From the sequence record OZ346222.1: DNA of 64,000 nt; one strand, given 5' to 3'. The stretch comes from a phage. Both the position numbers and the translations under genes were made by a program. A model generated the notes under the pieces. It did not search any database and was not told the origin of the DNA. It was given only the letters and a program-made list of their open reading frames with translations. This document shows, piece by piece, positions 4,054 through 36,364 of this stretch (its first letter is position 1; every line of letters starts with the position of its first letter).

Positions 4054-6447
4054 ATGAGTATGTGGTCTTTCGATTTTGAGTCATCCGGTTTGCTGGAAGA
4101 CCCAGATCTTTATTATCACTGCGGTCTGTTTAAAGAGCTGAATAAGAACCGTTTTATGCTGTTCCTTCCTCTAAATGACCGCACACACTACTCCGAGGAG
4201 GATATAGAAAAGGCTAAGAACTTCATTCTGTCAAAGAAAACTCTTTATAAAGATTTTGAAGTTCGCATAGCAGATTTTTCGGAGTTGGAAGGTTGGCTTA
4301 CAGGCAATTCTGACTGGTCACCAACAGCTTTGAACTGCCATAACTGCTACAGTTATGACTTTATGCTAATGGAAAGATTATCCGGTATTCATTTTGATAT
4401 GTTCCGTGATCCTAAATGCATGGGGACTATCAACGACCACCAGGTTAACCTGTTTGATACGTTGGCTATGAGCCGAATCTTGTGGCCTGATCGCCCTTTA
4501 CCAAAAGGTTGTCCGGACGCTGTATTCAACCCGGTTACTAAGAAAATGCAACCTGTTGGTCCTCACGGCCTTATGGCATGGGGCTACGCCCTTGGTAACC
4601 AGAAAGTTCAAATTGATGACTGGCGCGATCTTCCGTTGTGGAAGTATGTGGATCGTGTATTCGAGGACGTTATCATCCAGGAGCTGCTCTGGAAAGAGCT
4701 GGTAGCGGAATCAAAAGGTGTATTCTACGGCAAATCTGACATGCAGAACTTTATGTACGATCCAGCCAAAGAGAAGCCGAAAGGGTTCAAGAAGATCACC
4801 TGGAAGAACGCATTACGTCGAGGCATGCTGCAGCACTTCCTGATGGAGCTGCAGGCCCGTCAGGGTGTATACTTCGACATAGATGGAGCTATTGCTTTAC
4901 GTGACCGTTGCGATGCGTGGATGAAAGAAATCGCTGATCGTGTTGAACCACAACTACCTTTAAAAGAGCTGTCAATGTCTCAGCGGCCCAAGTTCCCTGA
5001 AAAGCCGTTTAACCAAGACGGGACAATCTCTAATAATGGTTGGAAATGGTTAAAAGATAAGCTTGGCTATCCTGTAGACATGAGTGCTTTAGAGTTCAAA
5101 GCCCCGCCTAAGCGAGCATTTACCTCTACAGGAGATGTCAGCAAGATGGGGATAAAATGGTGTGAAGAGATGGGCTGCAAAGACCCCGATAAGATGGCTG
5201 ATTTCTTGAGAGGCTATATTAAGGGCACCTCCACACCACAACCCTTACCTAAAGAGCTGATGGATCAGGCAATAAGTGATCTGCAGCAGAAGCGAATGCC
5301 TGACTGCAAGATACCTATGAAAATCAGCAATCAGGACGACATCAAGCGATACCTAATCAGTGCTGGTTGGCTCCCAACAATGTGGAGAACTAAAGATGTA
5401 ACTAAAGACAGCAAGAAGAAAGCTTTACCTGATGCAGATGTTGATGCACGAGTATATGCATATATGGACGAGCTTTTGGAGTCAGAGTATTGTGACCTAA
5501 TTATCAACTTCTGGAACAAAACTGATGCTAAGTTCCAGACAACCGTGCACAAGTTCCGAAGCTTTCCTAACTCCGAAAGGATTAAAAAGGAAGTATTCGG
5601 GAAAATACGTAGAAAAGCCAGGGCACTTATTACTTCTCCGCAACTGAAAGATACGTTTGGACACCTATGCCCAAATCTTGAAAAATTGAACGGAGAGATG
5701 GCTAAAGATATCGTCTTGTGGTTATCATTGCGAAACCGCAGATCGGTCCTTGATCCAATCAAGGAGGATAAGGTTGATACTGGTCTTCTTAATCACCCAC
5801 GTTTGAAGATTGACCATAAGCTTCCTGCTAAAAGCTCTGGATTAACAAACACTTCCAGACAGAAACACAGTATTTGTGCAAACATGCCTAAACCATCTCC
5901 TAAAGTGGTTATGGGTAAAGAGATGCGTAGTCTGTGGGGTGTTCCTCCGGGATACTTTGAGATCGGTATTGACGGGTCCAACTTAGAGCAGCTTATCGGG
6001 GCTTGGGGTGCCTTTGAGTTCGACAACGGCCTGTATTATGATGTTGTAAGTAACGGAGACGCACACCAAAACAATGCTGAGGCATATACAAAAGTGGCAG
6101 GCAGAGAGGTGTCCCGTAACGACGGTAAACCTATCACGTATGGGGTTATGTACGGGGCACAAAAAGATAAAGTTGCAGATATGTTGGACATCTCCCCAGA
6201 GTTGGGACAAAGGGTAATCGATGCACTCTGGGATGCCAACCCAGGTCTTAAGGGGCGCAAAGAGGATCTGGAGAAATTCTGGGAAGCAACAGGTAAGAAG
6301 TTTATCTACTCTTTTGATGGTCATGCTATCTGGACCCGATCTAAACACTCTTTACTTAATGCATACCAACAAAATGGCGGTGCATCGTTGTGTGACTTAG
6401 TTGGAATACTCATGCACCACCAGATGGTGAAGCGTGGGTGGTACGAT
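4054..6447 (+). CDS. DNA polymerase, family A (exon 1: 3'-5' exonuclease and polymerase motifs A and B)
   Basis: Exo I FDFESSG; motif A-like IDGSNLEQL; motif B-like KPITYGVMYGA; uninterrupted ORF runs to TAA at 6481-6483 but lacks the conserved C-terminal region; 3' boundary set at proposed 5' splice site. Confidence 0.75.
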
Positions 6448-6753
6448 GAAGGTGTTCGTCGTATTATTTATTACCATAAATAACATTGTGGCTTCATAGA
6501 GTAATCTATGTCGAATAACCTCTTTAACTGCGGGAAGCCTAAACCTTATGGCAAGGTAATCCGCAACGAAGCGCTCAAAAGAGCGAACGCTCAGAGGCCA
6601 TTCCGAAAGGAAGTAGACCAGCAAGTGCGGTCGAAATGGGAGGATTCCTGTGGTTGCTTATCATAGGAATATGAGATGGTCCGATCCTACGTGAAAACGT
6701 ATGGCTATGCACGTAATGGTGCGGGGTAGCTTAACGACCTACCTGAACTATTG
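6448..6753 (+). other. putative group I self-splicing intron (about 306 nt, no ORF) in DNA polymerase gene
   Basis: Four in-frame stops between two same-frame polymerase ORFs; P-like CTGCGGGAAG (6527-6537), Q-like AATCCGCAACG (6558-6568), R-like GTAGACCAGCAAG (6613-6625), S-like ATGAGATGGTCCGA (6671-6684) with R/S covariation; exon UACGAU (6442-6447) can pair with intron GUCGUA (6458-6463) giving U.G at splice site; G at 6753. Confidence 0.5.
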
Positions 6754-7107
6754 GATGAGTACCAACTTCAAGTGCCTGACACACCGAAGTATAAGACTGT
6801 GTACACCTTCGACACAATTGAAGAACTGGAAGCATTTAAGGCAGAGCAGGAAGCCAAACTTCATGTGTTCGACGGTCATAAGTACAAAAAGGCACGCAAG
6901 GATGAGGACGGAAACGAAGTGGTTGACAGAGACGGAAACACGGTGTACGATCCTATCCTGAACGATGACGGAAAGCTTGAACTTATCTGGAGCCCTGTGG
7001 GTGAAATGGTGGTACATTGCTTCTGGCAAGCTTCTAAAATGATGGGAGTCCCGTTCCAGATCACAGGTGAATACTTGTGTGGTCGTAATTGGGGTGATTG
7101 TCACTAA
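6754..7107 (+). CDS. DNA polymerase, family A (exon 2: C-terminal region)
   Basis: Same frame as exon 1; ends NWGDCH, closely resembling the T7 gp5 C-terminus NWAICH; begins DEYQLQV, which after splicing would give WYD-DEYQ (motif C-like). Confidence 0.55.
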   Translation, partial: DEYQLQVPDTPKYKTVYTFDTIEELEAFKAEQEAKLHVFDGHKYKKARKDEDGNEVVDRDGNTVYDPILNDDGKLELIWSPVGEMVVHCFWQASKMMGVPFQITGEYLCGRNWGDCH

Positions 7108-26860: not shown

Positions 26861-27477
26861 TCTGCTCTTCCCCCTACCATAAACGGCCCTACCTGGCAAG
26901 TGGAATAATTGACGAGCCATCAATCCCACACACTGTACAAATATACATGTAAAATAACTATTGCATAACCTTTCATTGTGTGGTAGCGGTGCTATTTTTT
27001 ACCTGTTTTCCTTCCAAAATTGCACGTAATGCAGCTATTGCACAAAATTTAACCTGATGCACATCTCCAATATCCTGTCAACAACTAAAAATCTTTATAA
27101 GTCATACACTTACACAGCATCGAAAGCGTGTTCTACGCGAAAAATCGAGTATAACTATAGCCGCCAGATCTCAGAATTCACGTACGCACGCCATTCTATA
27201 GCCTGCAAAGTATTTATTCCAACCACAGAATAACGGAATAGTCAATACCTGAATAAAATAATTATTCGTTTAAACTGCATAACATAAATCAGCTCAGGTG
27301 TCAACATTTTTCGTAAACAGTCTGAAATTGTCACTGTGAGTTATCATAAACAGAGAAATCTTTAGTCGTATAATGTTTACTGTACGTTACTATACTGACT
27401 GGAATCATTAGATGACTAATAGAAAGATAAGAAATAATTAACAATACAATTATTTTACCTGTAACAATAAGACAACT

Positions 27478-27726
27478 ATGCAAACGAATGGCATGGCGCG
27501 ACGGAGTCGCGACATAATATAAAAGCAGTAACCATCACCCCCGTGATGGTTTGTCTGCAATCTATTAATCAGATCATAGTTGCCTTGTATTCAGTTAATC
27601 ATGACATAATAAGCAAGGCAACTATAGATCTGCTAATAGTTGCCCTGCTTTTATATTATGTCATATATTATTAACTTGTTAATTGTTAACTTGCTAATTG
27701 TTTTCATGCAAACGAATGTCATGGCT
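27478..27726. repeat. palindrome-rich module flanked by 21-bp direct repeats
   Basis: ATGCAAACGAATG(G/T)CATGGC at 27478 and 27706; perfect 18-bp inverted repeat GACATAATATAAAAGCAG / CTGCTTTTATATTATGTC (27510/27645); 12-bp inverted repeat CATAGTTGCCTTG / CAAGGCAACTATG; several short hairpins. Confidence 0.75.
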
Positions 27727-27734
27727 TATCCTAT

Positions 27735-27805
27735 CTGTGTAAACAGTTAAGGTGTAAACTATCCAGGCGTAAACAGTCTATGCGGGAACAATCTATACGT
27801 GAACA
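27735..27805. repeat. iteron-like array of GT(A/G)AACAG octamers
   Basis: GTAAACAG / GTAAACTA / GTAAACAG / GTGAACAG spaced 10-20 bp; further copies near 27313, 28078, 28790. Confidence 0.6.
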
Positions 27806-28357
27806 GTGAAACATGAAATAATAACAGTCGTTATTGTGTCGAAAGTGTATAAGGTGTCAGACAAGTTTTTCTCCTCTTTGTCAAGTGCTGCATGAAAAAT
27901 TTACAAGCTTGTATGGTAGCATTTTTGCGGCCCTGTTTACATTCAGCGATGTATGTATAATCCTTGTTGTGTGGGCGTTTAGACGTCTAGACGGTCAGAA
28001 GTCTGCAGGTTAATACCTAATCTATCGGCTGCTAACTATATCCCACACAAATAGTAAGAAATATAATTGTTATGTGCGTAAACAGTAACTCATGTTATCA
28101 ATCCCTGTATGTATCGCCAGTGGTGCGCATAATGGGTATTATGTTAAATTGCCCGTAATGATAACTATTCTCACAATGATAGGTATTCTCATTCACTCCC
28201 ACAAGATAGGTTGCAAATGTTGTGCCACTGTGTGAACGGCCTAACCTATTAATTTGCCTCACTGCCTCGATATTTGAGAATTGTTATAAGAATGAGAAGT
28301 ATTCCCATTTCGTCCGCCTGGCAGCACTCCAGTCGCTACCGCTCATGACAGGGCAGA

Positions 28358-29610
28358 ACTAGACCCTCTTCAGATATTTCTGGCTGACTCTTCAGGTCTG
28401 TGTGGGAAAAGCCAACCTCTCCGGCGGCGGGGAGGGGGTCAATTAAAAAAAATTACGTGGTGCATGAAGCGCTCTTCAGGTAAGGCATGTGTTATGGGAT
28501 GAAACCCTCTTCAGGCAATGATATTTGTGGGTGTGATATTTGCTGGAAAGCCAGATATGACGGGACTCCTGGCGGGGCAGGGGTAGTACAGACAGGGAAA
28601 ATATGGGGGATGTAGTTGGGGAAATTGATCAGACAGGTAGAGTATGGAATATGTTACAAGTATGTTAAATAGGGAGGATGAATATCTGCAGGATTTGTGT
28701 GTAAAATCAAAGACTTAAGTGGTGTTGTGGTATTTTCTATAAATAATTCAAGTTTAATAGGTAATATTTGTCTCTATCCACTTTGTGTGGTAAACAGATT
28801 CAGATGAAATTGGTTTACAAGTGTATACATAATATACAAATTAAAGATACAAGAAACCCCCCTCCCCCTTCGGCTACCATTCACCTTTTCCTCTGACTGG
28901 TACTTAAACACTTATTCAGACTCTTCAGGTTATCACCCATATATCATATGGCAGTGACTGGTGTCCTCCGGCCCCTCTTTCGTCACCCGTCCGCTTCGCC
29001 ATGCTAATGCCATAGCCAATGGTTCGGTTGTTCACTCTGTTCACTCAGGTGTATCTCCATACCCCTTCAAACCGAAGAGAACAGAAAACCCGAATTACTC
29101 GGTAAAAGAAAAGAGAAGAACTTAATTTTATCAGGATAGGCAAGAATGTCAAGGCATGACTGCTCACTAAACAAGCAAACAGTCATGTGTGGAAGGTAAG
29201 TGATTGTGGTGGTGGGAAATTTAGTTGAAAGATGTGTTATAGGTGCGCTTCCAGCACTTTGGCCGGGCAGCTAATTGTGTGTCAGTCCAGCGGTTCATCC
29301 TCTACTTCACTGAAATCAATGTTCATGGTCTCCTCCCAACCATCGATCTCAGCACAAGAGTGGAGTTCTTTAGGGTTTACTCCCAAAGCCTCAGCAACAG
29401 AGTCTATATTTAACACCTCTGGCAGGTATGATTCATCGAATTCAAGGTAAATCAGGCCACGAGTGTTGTCAGCTCCACCAAATATCTCTATCTTCATGAA
29501 ATCTCCTCTGGAAATGAGAGTGTGAACAGGGTTTTATACGTTCTAATGCACAGGAATTATACACGTTTGCCTCTTCAGGCCATGCTTTAGCATGAGGAAC
29601 CTGTGTGGGC
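28358..29610. repeat. dispersed CTCTTCAG(G) motifs, often followed by TGTGTGGG
   Basis: Six copies on the same strand (about 28358, 28388, 28465, 28505, 28918, 29567) within a G/T-rich non-coding stretch. Confidence 0.6.
29282..29497 (-). CDS. hypothetical acidic protein (71 aa)
   Basis: Last gene of leftward block; begins MKIEI like several paralogs. Confidence 0.45.
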   Translation of the reverse strand: MKIEIFGGADNTRGLIYLEFDESYLPEVLNIDSVAEALGVNPKELHSCAEIDGWEETMNIDFSEVEDEPLD

Positions 29611-33280: not shown

Positions 33281-33676
33281 TTACTGAAACAGTGCGGATA
33301 AATTACCTTCTGGTGGGAACTTATCTGCCAAAAACGGTGTTAGCACAGTAGCCTTCTGAAGATCTGGGGTCCACTCGTTGTTCAGAACATCCCAGTAGTA
33401 CGCAATGTTGCTGTGTGGGTGCCGCATTACGAACTTTTTCCCTTCGTAGTCATCTGAAACCTCTACAGAAGAAATAACAACAGAATCTTCAAGGGTTTCT
33501 TCATAGAAAGATCCACCTTCAAATTTCCAACGAGATGCAAGAGCCCCTGCCTTGAACGCTGCAGATAACGGACTGTCGGCAAGAACATACATTTCTTGCA
33601 CTCTGTCGCTGCGATCTTTGCTTCTTACGTTGTATACAGTATCTGAGCTATACTCAACACGGTATAGTCTTACCAT
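33281..33676 (-). CDS. hypothetical protein (131 aa), family C paralog
   Basis: Shares V..HP.S...YW...WTP...LTPFL pattern with 35482..35880. Confidence 0.5.
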   Translation of the reverse strand: MVRLYRVEYSSDTVYNVRSKDRSDRVQEMYVLADSPLSAAFKAGALASRWKFEGGSFYEETLEDSVVISSVEVSDDYEGKKFVMRHPHSNIAYYWDVLNNEWTPDLQKATVLTPFLADKFPPEGNLSALFQ

Positions 33677-34008
33677 TACCGCACCTCCTCAATAACTTCC
33701 ACATCTGAACCCACCACAAATGCAAAAGGACAGGTTTCATGAAAGACATCCGGATCTCCGCCAAGCTTGCTAACAATTTCTCCACCACTAATAAACACAA
33801 GCTCACCGATATTCATCAGATTGCTGAAATAGTATCCATAATGATTAAAGAATGCAGCAGGGTCAGGTAGACTAGTAGCCTCAAGTTCTACATCGGTTGA
33901 GATTACTTTCTTATCATAACCTCTCGCCTTCTGAGATGCAAGATCCGCAGAATCTTCAGGCGACCTGAGATGCACAGGAATTGTTTCACCAATAAAGCGT
34001 ACTTTCAT
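33676..34008 (-). CDS. small acidic protein (110 aa), family A-like paralog
   Basis: MKVRF start; ends VEVIEE; ORF-track start is an upstream TTG. Confidence 0.45.
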   Translation of the reverse strand: MKVRFIGETIPVHLRSPEDSADLASQKARGYDKKVISTDVELEATSLPDPAAFFNHYGYYFSNLMNIGELVFISGGEIVSKLGGDPDVFHETCPFAFVVGSDVEVIEEVR

Positions 34009-34012
34009 ATTA

Positions 34013-34276
34013 TCACCCAACAACCATAGCTTCAAAAGGGGTCATGAACGAATAAACGGCATCATCATCTGCTTCAGGGAATGCTCCCAAAGACTTCATG
34101 TCTGAGCCCTTGACAAATACAAGGTTTTGATCAAAAGCTTCTTGGGGATCAATCCGATACATATTTCGTAGAATATCGCTTACCTCCTCATCAAGAGGTG
34201 AGTATGCTGTGCACGTTTTTCCGATCAAGCTTTGAGAATCAGGGTATCCACCTGAAGTTTTAAAATAAACAATCAT
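34013..34276 (-). CDS. small acidic protein (87 aa), family A paralog
   Basis: GYPDSQSLIGK and VFVKGSDMKSLGAF align with 39795..40028. Confidence 0.5.
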   Translation of the reverse strand: MIVYFKTSGGYPDSQSLIGKTCTAYSPLDEEVSDILRNMYRIDPQEAFDQNLVFVKGSDMKSLGAFPEADDDAVYSFMTPFEAMVVG

Positions 34277-34366
34277 ATAGTATCACCTCTGGTAAGAGAT
34301 GGGATTCCTTTCCCACAAATAATTACAAACCTTCCTTATCGAGGAAGTATGCTAATCCAAGCAGGA

Positions 34367-34636
34367 TTATTCCTCTACAATCTCATACACATCAGGAGTT
34401 ACAATCAACTCTTCTCCGTTACCCGGTGCAATAAACACCACCAAACCTTCAGGTGTGTGCTTTTTAGCCATCTCGATAACATCTTCCCGCAGGGCTGGCT
34501 CCATCAGATCAAAACCTTCACCCAGGGCATCACGAACCACCTTCATATAGTCCACTGGTTGTGCTTCAACAATCATGCCTTCAACCAGACCACAATTTTT
34601 GTCTGCCAGCTCAGTTTTGAATAATTTAATTTTCAT
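34367..34636 (-). CDS. small acidic protein (89 aa), family B paralog
   Basis: MKIKLF N-terminus; ends VYEIVEE. Confidence 0.5.
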   Translation of the reverse strand: MKIKLFKTELADKNCGLVEGMIVEAQPVDYMKVVRDALGEGFDLMEPALREDVIEMAKKHTPEGLVVFIAPGNGEELIVTPDVYEIVEE

Positions 34637-34773
34637 TTAGAGGTCTCCTCAATTATTTGATATTAATAGCCGTAACCTAACACATTAACTACAACTGCGA
34701 TTGCAAACATAATTTCAAAGCATGCAATCTCTACATTTGGGACTAATTTCTTGATCACACCCATTGTAGCACC

Positions 34774-35091
34774 TCATTCTCTAAAGTCAATCTTTACTTT
34801 GCCTTTCCCCTTACCTTTCTTTCCACCGCATTTAGCCAGTTGACGTGCTGCAACATCTACCATACGGTCAGTTGCCTCGTAAGCATCACTGCCTTTAGCT
34901 TTGGCAATAACTTCTTTTCCAGAATTGTCAAAAATGAACGCCATAACTTCCTGGTGATCATTTTCAACTTTTACACTCACACGTGCATAGTTGGCAGAGG
35001 GATGCAAACGCTCCAGCTTAGACATTTTGTGGGAAATGAAAGACACCATACCTTCAGTGATTTCTACGTTGCCAGTGATTTCAATTTGCAT
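34774..35091 (-). CDS. hpf: ribosome hibernation promoting factor (HPF/YfiA family) homolog
   Basis: MQIEITGNVEITEGM ... RVSVKVEN ... AKAKGSDAYEATD ... RQLAK closely parallels E. coli HPF (MQLNITGNNVEITEAL ...); lysine-rich tail. Confidence 0.7.
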   Translation of the reverse strand: MQIEITGNVEITEGMVSFISHKMSKLERLHPSANYARVSVKVENDHQEVMAFIFDNSGKEVIAKAKGSDAYEATDRMVDVAARQLAKCGGKKGKGKGKVKIDFRE

Positions 35092-35173
35092 AACGTGTTC
35101 CTTTTAAAGAAGAGGGAACCAAACCCTCTTTGAAAACAATGATACTAAATCTGAAGCGTTGTGTCAACAGTTT

Positions 35174-35464
35174 TTACAGATTGTTGTCGATAGTTTTTAA
35201 AATATCCACAGCAAGATCTGCCATTTTTCGAACATACTCTGCAAACTCAACAGGATCCTTGATCAAAGAATTCACAGGGTCGTACCCTAGAGCGTTCAAA
35301 ATGGCTGCAGCATCTACAACCTTCTCATCATTTGCGAAGATCTCTCCATCAAACTTGTAGGTCCATTTTGAGTCAATCTTGGCAGGGAATGATTGGTCAA
35401 CGCTTGTTACACCATCCTTTTTAAACGCTCCGGTGTTATCAGTGTCTAGAACTAAATCCATCAT
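35174..35464 (-). CDS. hypothetical protein (96 aa)
   Basis: In leftward gene array. Confidence 0.45.
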   Translation of the reverse strand: MMDLVLDTDNTGAFKKDGVTSVDQSFPAKIDSKWTYKFDGEIFANDEKVVDAAAILNALGYDPVNSLIKDPVEFAEYVRKMADLAVDILKTIDNNL

Positions 35465-35481
35465 GTTAGTACCTCACCGTT

Positions 35482-35880
35482 TCAGTTTAGCTTTTCTTCA
35501 ACAACCCCATAGCTCGGGACAGAGTCAAGAGCTTTCTGGTTTAAAAGTGGTGTAGCAGAATCTGCAAACGGTGTCCAAGTTTTTGTTCTGGCGTTCCAGT
35601 AATGCTTCACTCTGGAATCTGGATGCACTATAACAAAAACTTTTTCACTTGTCAACACATTAATTTCTTCCACACCCCTGCTGATAATTTCTCCGTCATA
35701 TCCCCCGGTCTGGTATCCTTCGTACCAGGTTCTTGCATAGGCATAGCCAGCCTGCCAGCATGCAGCCTCCTCCGAGGTGGAGACTACGTAGAAGTCTTTC
35801 TCAAATTCTGGGATACGCCCTTGCTTTACGCTCCAAGCTCCGCGAATTTTCATTGTAACTTTGAATAGTTTATTTTTCAC
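35482..35880 (-). CDS. hypothetical protein (132 aa), family C paralog
   Basis: Paralog of 33281..33676. Confidence 0.5.
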   Translation of the reverse strand: MKNKLFKVTMKIRGAWSVKQGRIPEFEKDFYVVSTSEEAACWQAGYAYARTWYEGYQTGGYDGEIISRGVEEINVLTSEKVFVIVHPDSRVKHYWNARTKTWTPFADSATPLLNQKALDSVPSYGVVEEKLN

Positions 35881-35892
35881 AACGGTTACCCA

Positions 35893-36147
35893 TCACAGTT
35901 CTACAATATCTGCATCTGACCCTGCCCCAAAGGCATAATAGGACTCTTCCCCGAAATAATATTCCGGTGCACCAGCAGCGATCAGGTCTGATCCCAAAAT
36001 GAATACCACGTTGTGGCCTACATAGCTGTGATTTTGCCGCACAGGATCATCCCACGGCAACCCTTCGAAGTATACCGCAGGGACGACCTTTCCTTTCAGG
36101 AAGGATTGCCCCAAGTAGACGTTAGAATCAAGAATTTTAACCTTCAT
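35893..36147 (-). CDS. small acidic protein (84 aa), family A paralog
   Basis: MKVKILDS and DLIAAGA motifs. Confidence 0.5.
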   Translation of the reverse strand: MKVKILDSNVYLGQSFLKGKVVPAVYFEGLPWDDPVRQNHSYVGHNVVFILGSDLIAAGAPEYYFGEESYYAFGAGSDADIVEL

Positions 36148-36364
36148 GATCGTCCTCCACTATCTCTACATCCTCACCTAGGGCAAAGTTGTAGGTCCAC
36201 TGACTGTCAAAGCATTCCTGAGATGCACCAGCGGCAATAAGATCTGCCCCTTTTATTTTTAAAAGGTCAGGGTAATCTTCGTTAGGGACAGCAGTAAACA
36301 CTTTCCCTACTAAAGGCTCCTGACCAATATAGAAGCTTGAATCTAAAACTTTAACTTTCATCAA
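36137..36364 (-). CDS. small acidic protein (75 aa), family A paralog
   Basis: MKVKVLDS and DLIAAGA motifs; ends VEIVEDDHEG. Confidence 0.5.
   Translation of the reverse strand: MMKVKVLDSSFYIGQEPLVGKVFTAVPNEDYPDLLKIKGADLIAAGASQECFDSQWTYNFALGEDVEIVEDDHEG

Follow-up and report, generated by a model that had tools for sequence, protein, structure and literature searches.

The closest described systems are short HPF of Escherichia coli (YhbH; 2rql, 6h4n and 6h58), E. coli YfiA (RaiA or protein Y; 4v8i and 1n3g) and the HPF-like proteins of phages. YfiA opposes 100S dimers and HPF promotes them, a difference that the literature ascribes to the longer RaiA/YfiA tail, which is described as running up to the RMF site and obstructing it (PMC10502375; 2025 preprint). 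The phage protein studied here has the fold and domain boundaries of E. coli HPF, with the N-terminus aligned at residue 1, and it also shares family and fold with YfiA, including a C-terminal extension beyond the short-HPF length. On the other hand, its 105 residues lie between the 95 of HPF and the 113 of YfiA, and its overall pI is 9.0, compared to 6.5 for HPF and 5.95 for YfiA.

Among phages, the rV5 product ABI79209 and its Vequintavirus orthologs (PMC6375957, PMC6969025) represent the same gene and differ from it in nothing material. The annotation of the rV5 gene dates from 2008 (GenBank DQ832317). Mizuno et al. 2019 (Nat Commun) listed ABI79209 as a phage HPF, grouped it with gammaproteobacterial sequences and tested it experimentally (PMC6375957), and Mathieu et al. 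2020 (Nat Commun) noted hpf in five new rV5-like phages (PMC6969025); our literature search found no mechanistic study of the rV5 protein later than 2019. Since it has been annotated since the rV5 record and was published in 2019, the phage HPF gene is not new: it is already known and genus-typical in rV5-like phages. What the present analysis adds concerns selection, composition, a promoter-like site, the pattern of contact residues, the character of the tail and the failure to reach equivalog cutoffs. S30AE-fold proteins of ~110 aa also occur in the jumbo phages GAP32 (Cronobacter; K4F6Q6; also in PMC6375957) and PBECO4 (Escherichia; L7TII8), but they are only 20-23% identical to the vequintavirus protein and were missed by tblastn, which points to independent acquisition in the jumbo phages.

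Distribution and annotation of the gene

The stretch of DNA analysed here (the window, 64 kb) belongs to a Vequintavirus (rV5-like coliphage). Over the 4 kb around the HPF gene, identity to Escherichia phage JohannBauhin is 99.3%, and dozens of further rV5-like myoviruses of the genus Vequintavirus reach at least 98%. Eleven GenBank records, including those of the BASEL phages JohannBauhin, AlexBoehm, RudolfGeigy and WalterGehring, carry exactly the same protein (100% identity); identity to the rV5 protein is 99%, 118 records show at least 93%, and the ORF is intact in ~119 GenBank phage records. Existing names for the gene include "sigma 54 modulation factor" (rV5, DQ832317), "ribosome hibernation factor" (BASEL phages), "hpf" and, in RefSeq, "ribosome-associated translation inhibitor RaiA"; some records wrongly call it "ATP-dependent protease La".

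Several database entries around this gene are themselves irregular. In APCEc02, "sigma 54 modulation factor" was put on gene _082 and the true HPF homolog, _083, was left "hypothetical"; the mislabel then spread by similarity to the corresponding 89-aa neighbour in naam, nomo and others. This neighbour (34367..34636, minus strand) was considered as a second HPF copy and rejected, having no Pfam match and owing its label to the misplaced APCEc02 annotation. Eighteen "Campylobacter phage" records (MG0656xx) share 96-99% identity with E. coli vequintaviruses across the HPF region, which makes wrong host labels or contaminated samples the probable explanation. The phage records also include a 691-kb contig of Salmonella enterica (AGRM01000002.1), and an apparent "Salmonella phage" HPF match was discarded, the sequence being a bacterial contig wrongly placed among the phages.

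Family membership and predicted fold

The preliminary description took the product for an HPF/YfiA homolog and named an HMM search against this family as the check. Searched against PF02482 (Ribosomal_S30AE), the protein gave a significant match of 48.3 bits (E=1.8e-12; gathering cutoff 23.7) over profile positions 1-83 of 88, so the observation stands; TIGR00741 (HPF/YfiA family) was also matched, at 45.9 bits versus a cutoff of 40.9. Pairwise and fold evidence bear out the homology as well. A phmmer search of the PDB placed E. coli HPF first (2rql, 4v8h and 6h4n; E ~5e-12), with residues 1-89 aligned on 1-89. In direct comparison, the phage protein can be aligned over its whole length to E. 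coli HPF at 43% identity (E=1.7e-14) and matches YfiA at 25% identity (E=0.02), and it is thus much nearer to host HPF than to YfiA. The motifs singled out earlier are all in place: the MQ(I/L)xITG start is MQIEITG at residues 1-7 (MQLNITG in E. coli HPF), the VKVE core occupies residues 40-43 (LKVE in E. coli HPF), and RQL lies at residues 83-85.

Membership at a finer level is less regular. The score against NF007780, the gammaproteobacterial equivalog for short HPF, is 55.8 bits, below the 125-bit cutoff, and that against NF007654, the RaiA/YfiA equivalog, is 17.6 bits, below the 158-bit cutoff. Short HPFs have ~95 aa and a short basic helix end, whereas the phage protein has 105 aa and a Gly/Lys tail of ~17 residues; RaiA/YfiA proteins have a long acidic C-terminal tail, whereas the phage tail is basic and shorter; and long HPFs of the Gram-positive type have ~185 aa with a C-terminal dimerisation domain, whereas the phage protein has only 105 aa and no second Pfam domain. 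The RefSeq name "RaiA" is therefore poorly founded, given the low identity to YfiA, the NF007654 score and the basic, shorter tail. As a word-indexed search for homologs gave no more than five proteins, near-identical ones or members of the clade, all 1.84 billion cluster representatives were scanned exhaustively with HMMER; this yielded only 22 matches at E<=1e-3, the best of which, after one vequintavirus-type relative, are enterobacterial short HPFs of 38-45% identity. From its sequence, the protein is best regarded as a diverged short-HPF-type member of the HPF/YfiA family.

AlphaFold2 was run on an alignment of 21 family sequences, as single-sequence prediction gave a poor model (pLDDT 52). 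The alignment-based model has a mean pLDDT of 83 and a pTM of 0.73; it is confident for residues 1-90, with pLDDT ~90 over residues 1-80, and residues 91-105 fall below 50 and are predicted to be disordered. Its secondary structure elements are E2-7, H13-29, E33-43, E46-55, E60-67 and H70-92. In a Foldseek search of the PDB, the top 36 matches were all HPF, YfiA or pY, the best being E. coli HPF, both in its solution structure and bound to the hibernating ribosome, and V. cholerae HPF, ahead of YfiA/pY entries. Ribosome-bound E. coli HPF (6h4n_x) superposes with an rmsd of 1.1 Å over 92 columns (TM 0.90, 41% identity). Weaker matches include dsRNA-binding domains. Because the model derives from the family alignment, the agreement corroborates homology and is no independent proof of it.

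Residues at the ribosome interface

The list of ribosome-contact residues comes from a cryo-EM study of 2025 that surveyed Gram-negative ribosomes carrying HPF or YfiA and describes K80, R83, K87, K89 and K91 (E. coli numbering) as "strictly conserved" basic rRNA contacts of α2 (bioRxiv 10.1101/2025.10.07.680626). These contacts were mapped onto the phage protein through a 19-sequence alignment. The contacts at K23 (phage K22), K26 (K25), Q29 (now R28), E44 (E43), E60, D69, Y71, R83, K87 and K91 are kept, and those at K80, K89, T53 and H55 are lost, being replaced by V, G, F and F, respectively. Thus, three of the five basic contacts of α2 remain (R83, K87 and K91). P0004, a divergent ortholog, has no more than R83 and K87 in register, with K80 replaced by T and K89 by S. 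Clade-specific changes at positions conserved in the family comprise DMY to DAY, AAID to EATD, K80 to V/T, K89 to G/S and T53 to F/R. The extra lysines of the tail may compensate for the lost α2 lysines.

The β1-α1 loop varies within the genus by a single codon (codon 8, 35068..35070). It reads GNNVE in V18, Murica and nomo, like the loop of E. coli HPF, and GNVE in the window and the majority of the other phages.

The basic C-terminal tail

A Lys/Gly-rich tail had been noted from the letters alone, and KCGGKKGKGKGKVKIDFRE is indeed found at the C-terminus, where E. coli HPF has the compact helix end KHKDKLKQH. The coding sequence of the tail is an A/G-rich run of low complexity. Over residues 87-105 the net charge is +6, compared to +3 in HPF and -3 in YfiA, whose acidic tail is also longer. 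Among isolates, the tail varies in length and frame: the protein has 99 aa in Murica, 101 aa in APCEc02 and 103 aa in YN3, the last being short of two codons and the first two having frameshifted ends. An APCEc02-type end arises again independently in the metagenomic protein P0003, and the window allele ends in ...DFRE where rV5 ends in ...DFGE. The proximal basic Gly/Lys part is kept in all variants, and the tail is thus constrained in character, not in sequence.

Gene context and expression signals

The coordinates of the gene, its parts and its presumed signals are given in Table 1.

Table 1. Mapped features of the window
Feature	Coordinates	Strand	Evidence
Phage HPF/YfiA-family CDS	34774..35091	-	ORF list; ATG start, 105 codons and stop
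HPF domain-coding part	34828..35091	-	AlphaFold2 confidence; Foldseek match to 6h4n_x; dN/dS 0.03-0.09
Predicted disordered, strongly basic Gly/Lys-rich C-terminal tail, residues 89-105 (GGKKGKGKGKVKIDFRE)	34777..34827	-	Low pLDDT; net charge
Shine-Dalgarno-like AAGGA	35099..35103	-	7 nt before the ATG of the HPF gene; direct sequence reading
Sigma-70-type promoter-like site, TTGACA-17-TATCAT	35139..35167	-	Consensus scan, 11/12 matches; directly upstream of the HPF gene
Group I intron	6468..6703	+	Rfam RF00028, 64.7 bits versus gathering score 50

As the preliminary description had it, the gene lies within a long run of small genes on the same strand; its neighbours have no assigned function, and the block, which looks like an early region, corresponds to a part of the rV5 genome for which 88 ORFs, most of them small, have been described (PMC3606486). 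The Shine-Dalgarno-like motif is kept in V18, Aya and YN3. In the promoter-like site, the -35 block and its context, AAACTGTTGACAC, are invariant in four vequintaviruses and in the metagenomic ortholog of 64% identity. Judged by its consensus match alone, the site would fit early transcription by host RNA polymerase; further sigma-70-type sites are scattered through the small-gene block in the same scan. A 7-bp hairpin in the 5' UTR (35110..35130, minus strand) was rejected as a regulatory element, its stability being not above that of shuffled sequence (z = -0.83). Partner genes for RMF, YfiA, Sra and YqjD were sought in the 64-kb window by tblastn and none was found, nor were tRNA genes or any other translation gene found there, so the gene context lends no support to the mechanism favoured below.

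The genes flanking the HPF gene (33281..36364, minus strand) form paralogous sets. Products of 131 and 132 aa are related (E=1.4e-10), as are products of 75 and 84 aa (E=1.6e-15), with weaker links to products of 87 and 119 aa, and this suggests that a three-gene module may have been duplicated on either side of the HPF block. Directly downstream lies a 33-aa hydrophobic ORF (MGVIKKLVPNVEIACFEIMFAIAVVVNVLGYGY; 34663..34764, minus strand), conserved and annotated in most relatives; the HPF gene itself contains, at its 3' end, a promoter-like TTGACT-16-TACAAT with TG (34790..34763, minus strand).

Elsewhere in the window, the group I intron starts where an 809-aa DNA-polymerase-like ORF (4054..6483, plus strand) has its stop codon, and a possible second exon is the ORF downstream (6751..7107, plus strand). 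A stretch of ~2.3 kb (~26950..29230; GC 39.1%) contains no ORF of at least 60 aa on either strand and carries short tandem repeats of 15-18 bp (27667-27807 and 28157-28191). Its counterpart in rV5 has been described as "non-coding" (PMC3606486), and the stretch is a possible origin of replication or non-coding RNA region.

Selection and age of the gene

Codon-aligned Nei-Gojobori estimates over residues 1-88 gave dN/dS values of 0.03-0.09 among vequintaviruses; between the window and Aya, for example, dS is 0.59 and dN 0.024. The HPF domain is thus under strong purifying selection. P0004, the syntenic ortholog of 64% identity, is found in the same small-gene block on metagenomic contigs of 125-137 kb. 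Compared to the window, synonymous sites are saturated (pS ~0.8), and pN is 0.21 in the core and 0.46 in the tail. The low dN/dS, the presence in 119 phage records and the syntenic ortholog with saturated synonymous sites together indicate that the function of the protein is maintained. The gene has a GC content of 41.8% and a GC3 of 36.8%, like the surrounding phage DNA; the capture is old, not recent.

The published ribosome-binding experiment

In the experiment of Mizuno et al., rV5 HPF was expressed from pBAD24 in E. coli harvested at OD600 = 1, ribosomes were pelleted through 0.5 M NH4Cl, and the 70S and 100S fractions were analysed by mass spectrometry (PMC6375957). Peptides of the viral HPF were absent from the 70S/100S fractions and present in the crude extract, and the 100S peak showed no discernible change on expression (PMC6375957).

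The supplementary tables of that study (PMC6375957) contain two further points that are not discussed in the paper. First, host short HPF, which is the nearest homolog and whose binding to ribosomes is undisputed, is missing from all three ribosome preparations, and HPF and RMF are both in the crude extract. As the assay missed the genuine host HPF too, its negative result for the viral protein says little on binding. Second, host YfiA was found in the ribosome preparations of bS21-expressing cells (score 22.6) and bL12-expressing cells (score 137, ranked between S17 and S14), and it is missing from the 71-protein ribosome list of cells expressing viral HPF, in which S17 and S14 were detected. 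The crude extract of the latter cells contained YfiA, with a score of 188. From one unquantified sample per condition, this absence is compatible with viral HPF competing for the shared site and then washing off; a differing growth state could account for it instead. Since host YfiA survived the 0.5 M NH4Cl wash in two parallel samples, the viral protein, if it binds, would be less salt-resistant than YfiA.

Possible function of the phage protein

Based on the results presented above, we favour, with about as much doubt as confidence, the reading that the protein is an early-made short-HPF derivative that would occupy the decoding channel of vacant host ribosomes and act as a 70S-level competitor of host factors, not as a 100S promoter. 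rV5-like phages would have taken a short-HPF-type gene long ago from a gammaproteobacterial host, and the protein would be produced early, probably from a host-type sigma-70 promoter. It would bind at the HPF/YfiA site, that is, the tRNA/mRNA channel of the 30S in vacant 70S ribosomes, through the retained basic residues of α1 and α2 (K22, K25, R28, R83, K87 and K91). The added Gly/Lys tail may contribute non-specific rRNA affinity while specific anchoring is weakened; this tail leaves the same helix end as the YfiA tail and is longer than that of HPF. By competing with host decoding-site factors, in a YfiA-like or an anti-hibernation manner, the protein may keep idle ribosomes intact and available to the phage, and it would not promote 100S dimers. 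A tail longer than that of HPF, with a YfiA-like exit, and the loss of two α2 lysines are what point to a 70S-level competitor and not to a 100S promoter; in this respect, the phage protein would be YfiA-like in its proposed mode (70S-level binding without 100S promotion). The preliminary description had suggested direct manipulation of host ribosomes, for example their stabilisation, and this we likewise infer. Against this reading stand the failure to recover viral HPF in the 70S/100S fractions and the unchanged 100S peak (PMC6375957), as well as the loss of two of the five α2 contacts together with T53 and H55.

A related reading, which we consider unlikely, is that the protein is an anti-hibernation decoy with a fast off-rate, which would evict host YfiA and HPF from idle ribosomes and block the RMF site with its basic tail. 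Such a decoy would jointly explain the lost anchoring lysines, the absence of ribosome co-purification and the loss of host YfiA from ribosomes specifically when the viral protein is expressed. If this were true, the ribosomes of slow-growing or stationary hosts would be kept in, or returned to, a state immediately usable by the phage.

It is also rather improbable that the protein is a true functional equivalent of short HPF, forming 100S dimers with host RMF or silencing ribosomes, with host shut-off or ribosome storage as the outcome. Short HPF is the nearest relative in structure and sequence, R83, K87, K91 and the α1 lysines are retained, and the GNNVE loop of E. coli HPF is kept in some isolates. 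However, expression in E. coli brought no discernible change in 100S (PMC6375957), the NF007780 score is far under the equivalog cutoff, and the tail is ~10 residues longer than that of HPF, resembling the YfiA feature thought to be incompatible with RMF. In addition, early indiscriminate silencing of ribosomes would presumably block phage translation too.

We equally doubt that the HPF fold has been repurposed as an RNA-binding protein with a non-ribosomal target. The failure to recover viral HPF with ribosomes (PMC6375957) could be read in this way, but the genuine host HPF was also unrecovered in that assay. The clade-specific substitutions at otherwise conserved positions, the outlier status of the protein in its family (22 representatives in the exhaustive scan, the nearest cellular relative at most 45% identical) and the dsRNA-binding domains among the weaker fold matches would fit such a change of target; on the other hand, most of the contacts that were mapped have been kept and evolve under purifying selection, and no data suggest an alternative target. 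That the gene is a functionless passenger, a decaying remnant of captured host DNA, is hardly credible: the frameshift and length variants of the tail and the lack of a known phenotype might be taken to speak for it, but the intact ORF in 119 records, the conserved start, Shine-Dalgarno and promoter-like motifs and, above all, the selection data (low core dN/dS and retention across a split old enough to saturate synonymous sites) effectively refute it.

Ribosome-associated factors encoded by phages show that even the translation machinery is tuned by viruses. Phages of the rV5 type belong to the commonest coliphage isolates and are candidates for therapy, and how they handle hibernating ribosomes in slow-growing gut or biofilm hosts is of practical relevance.
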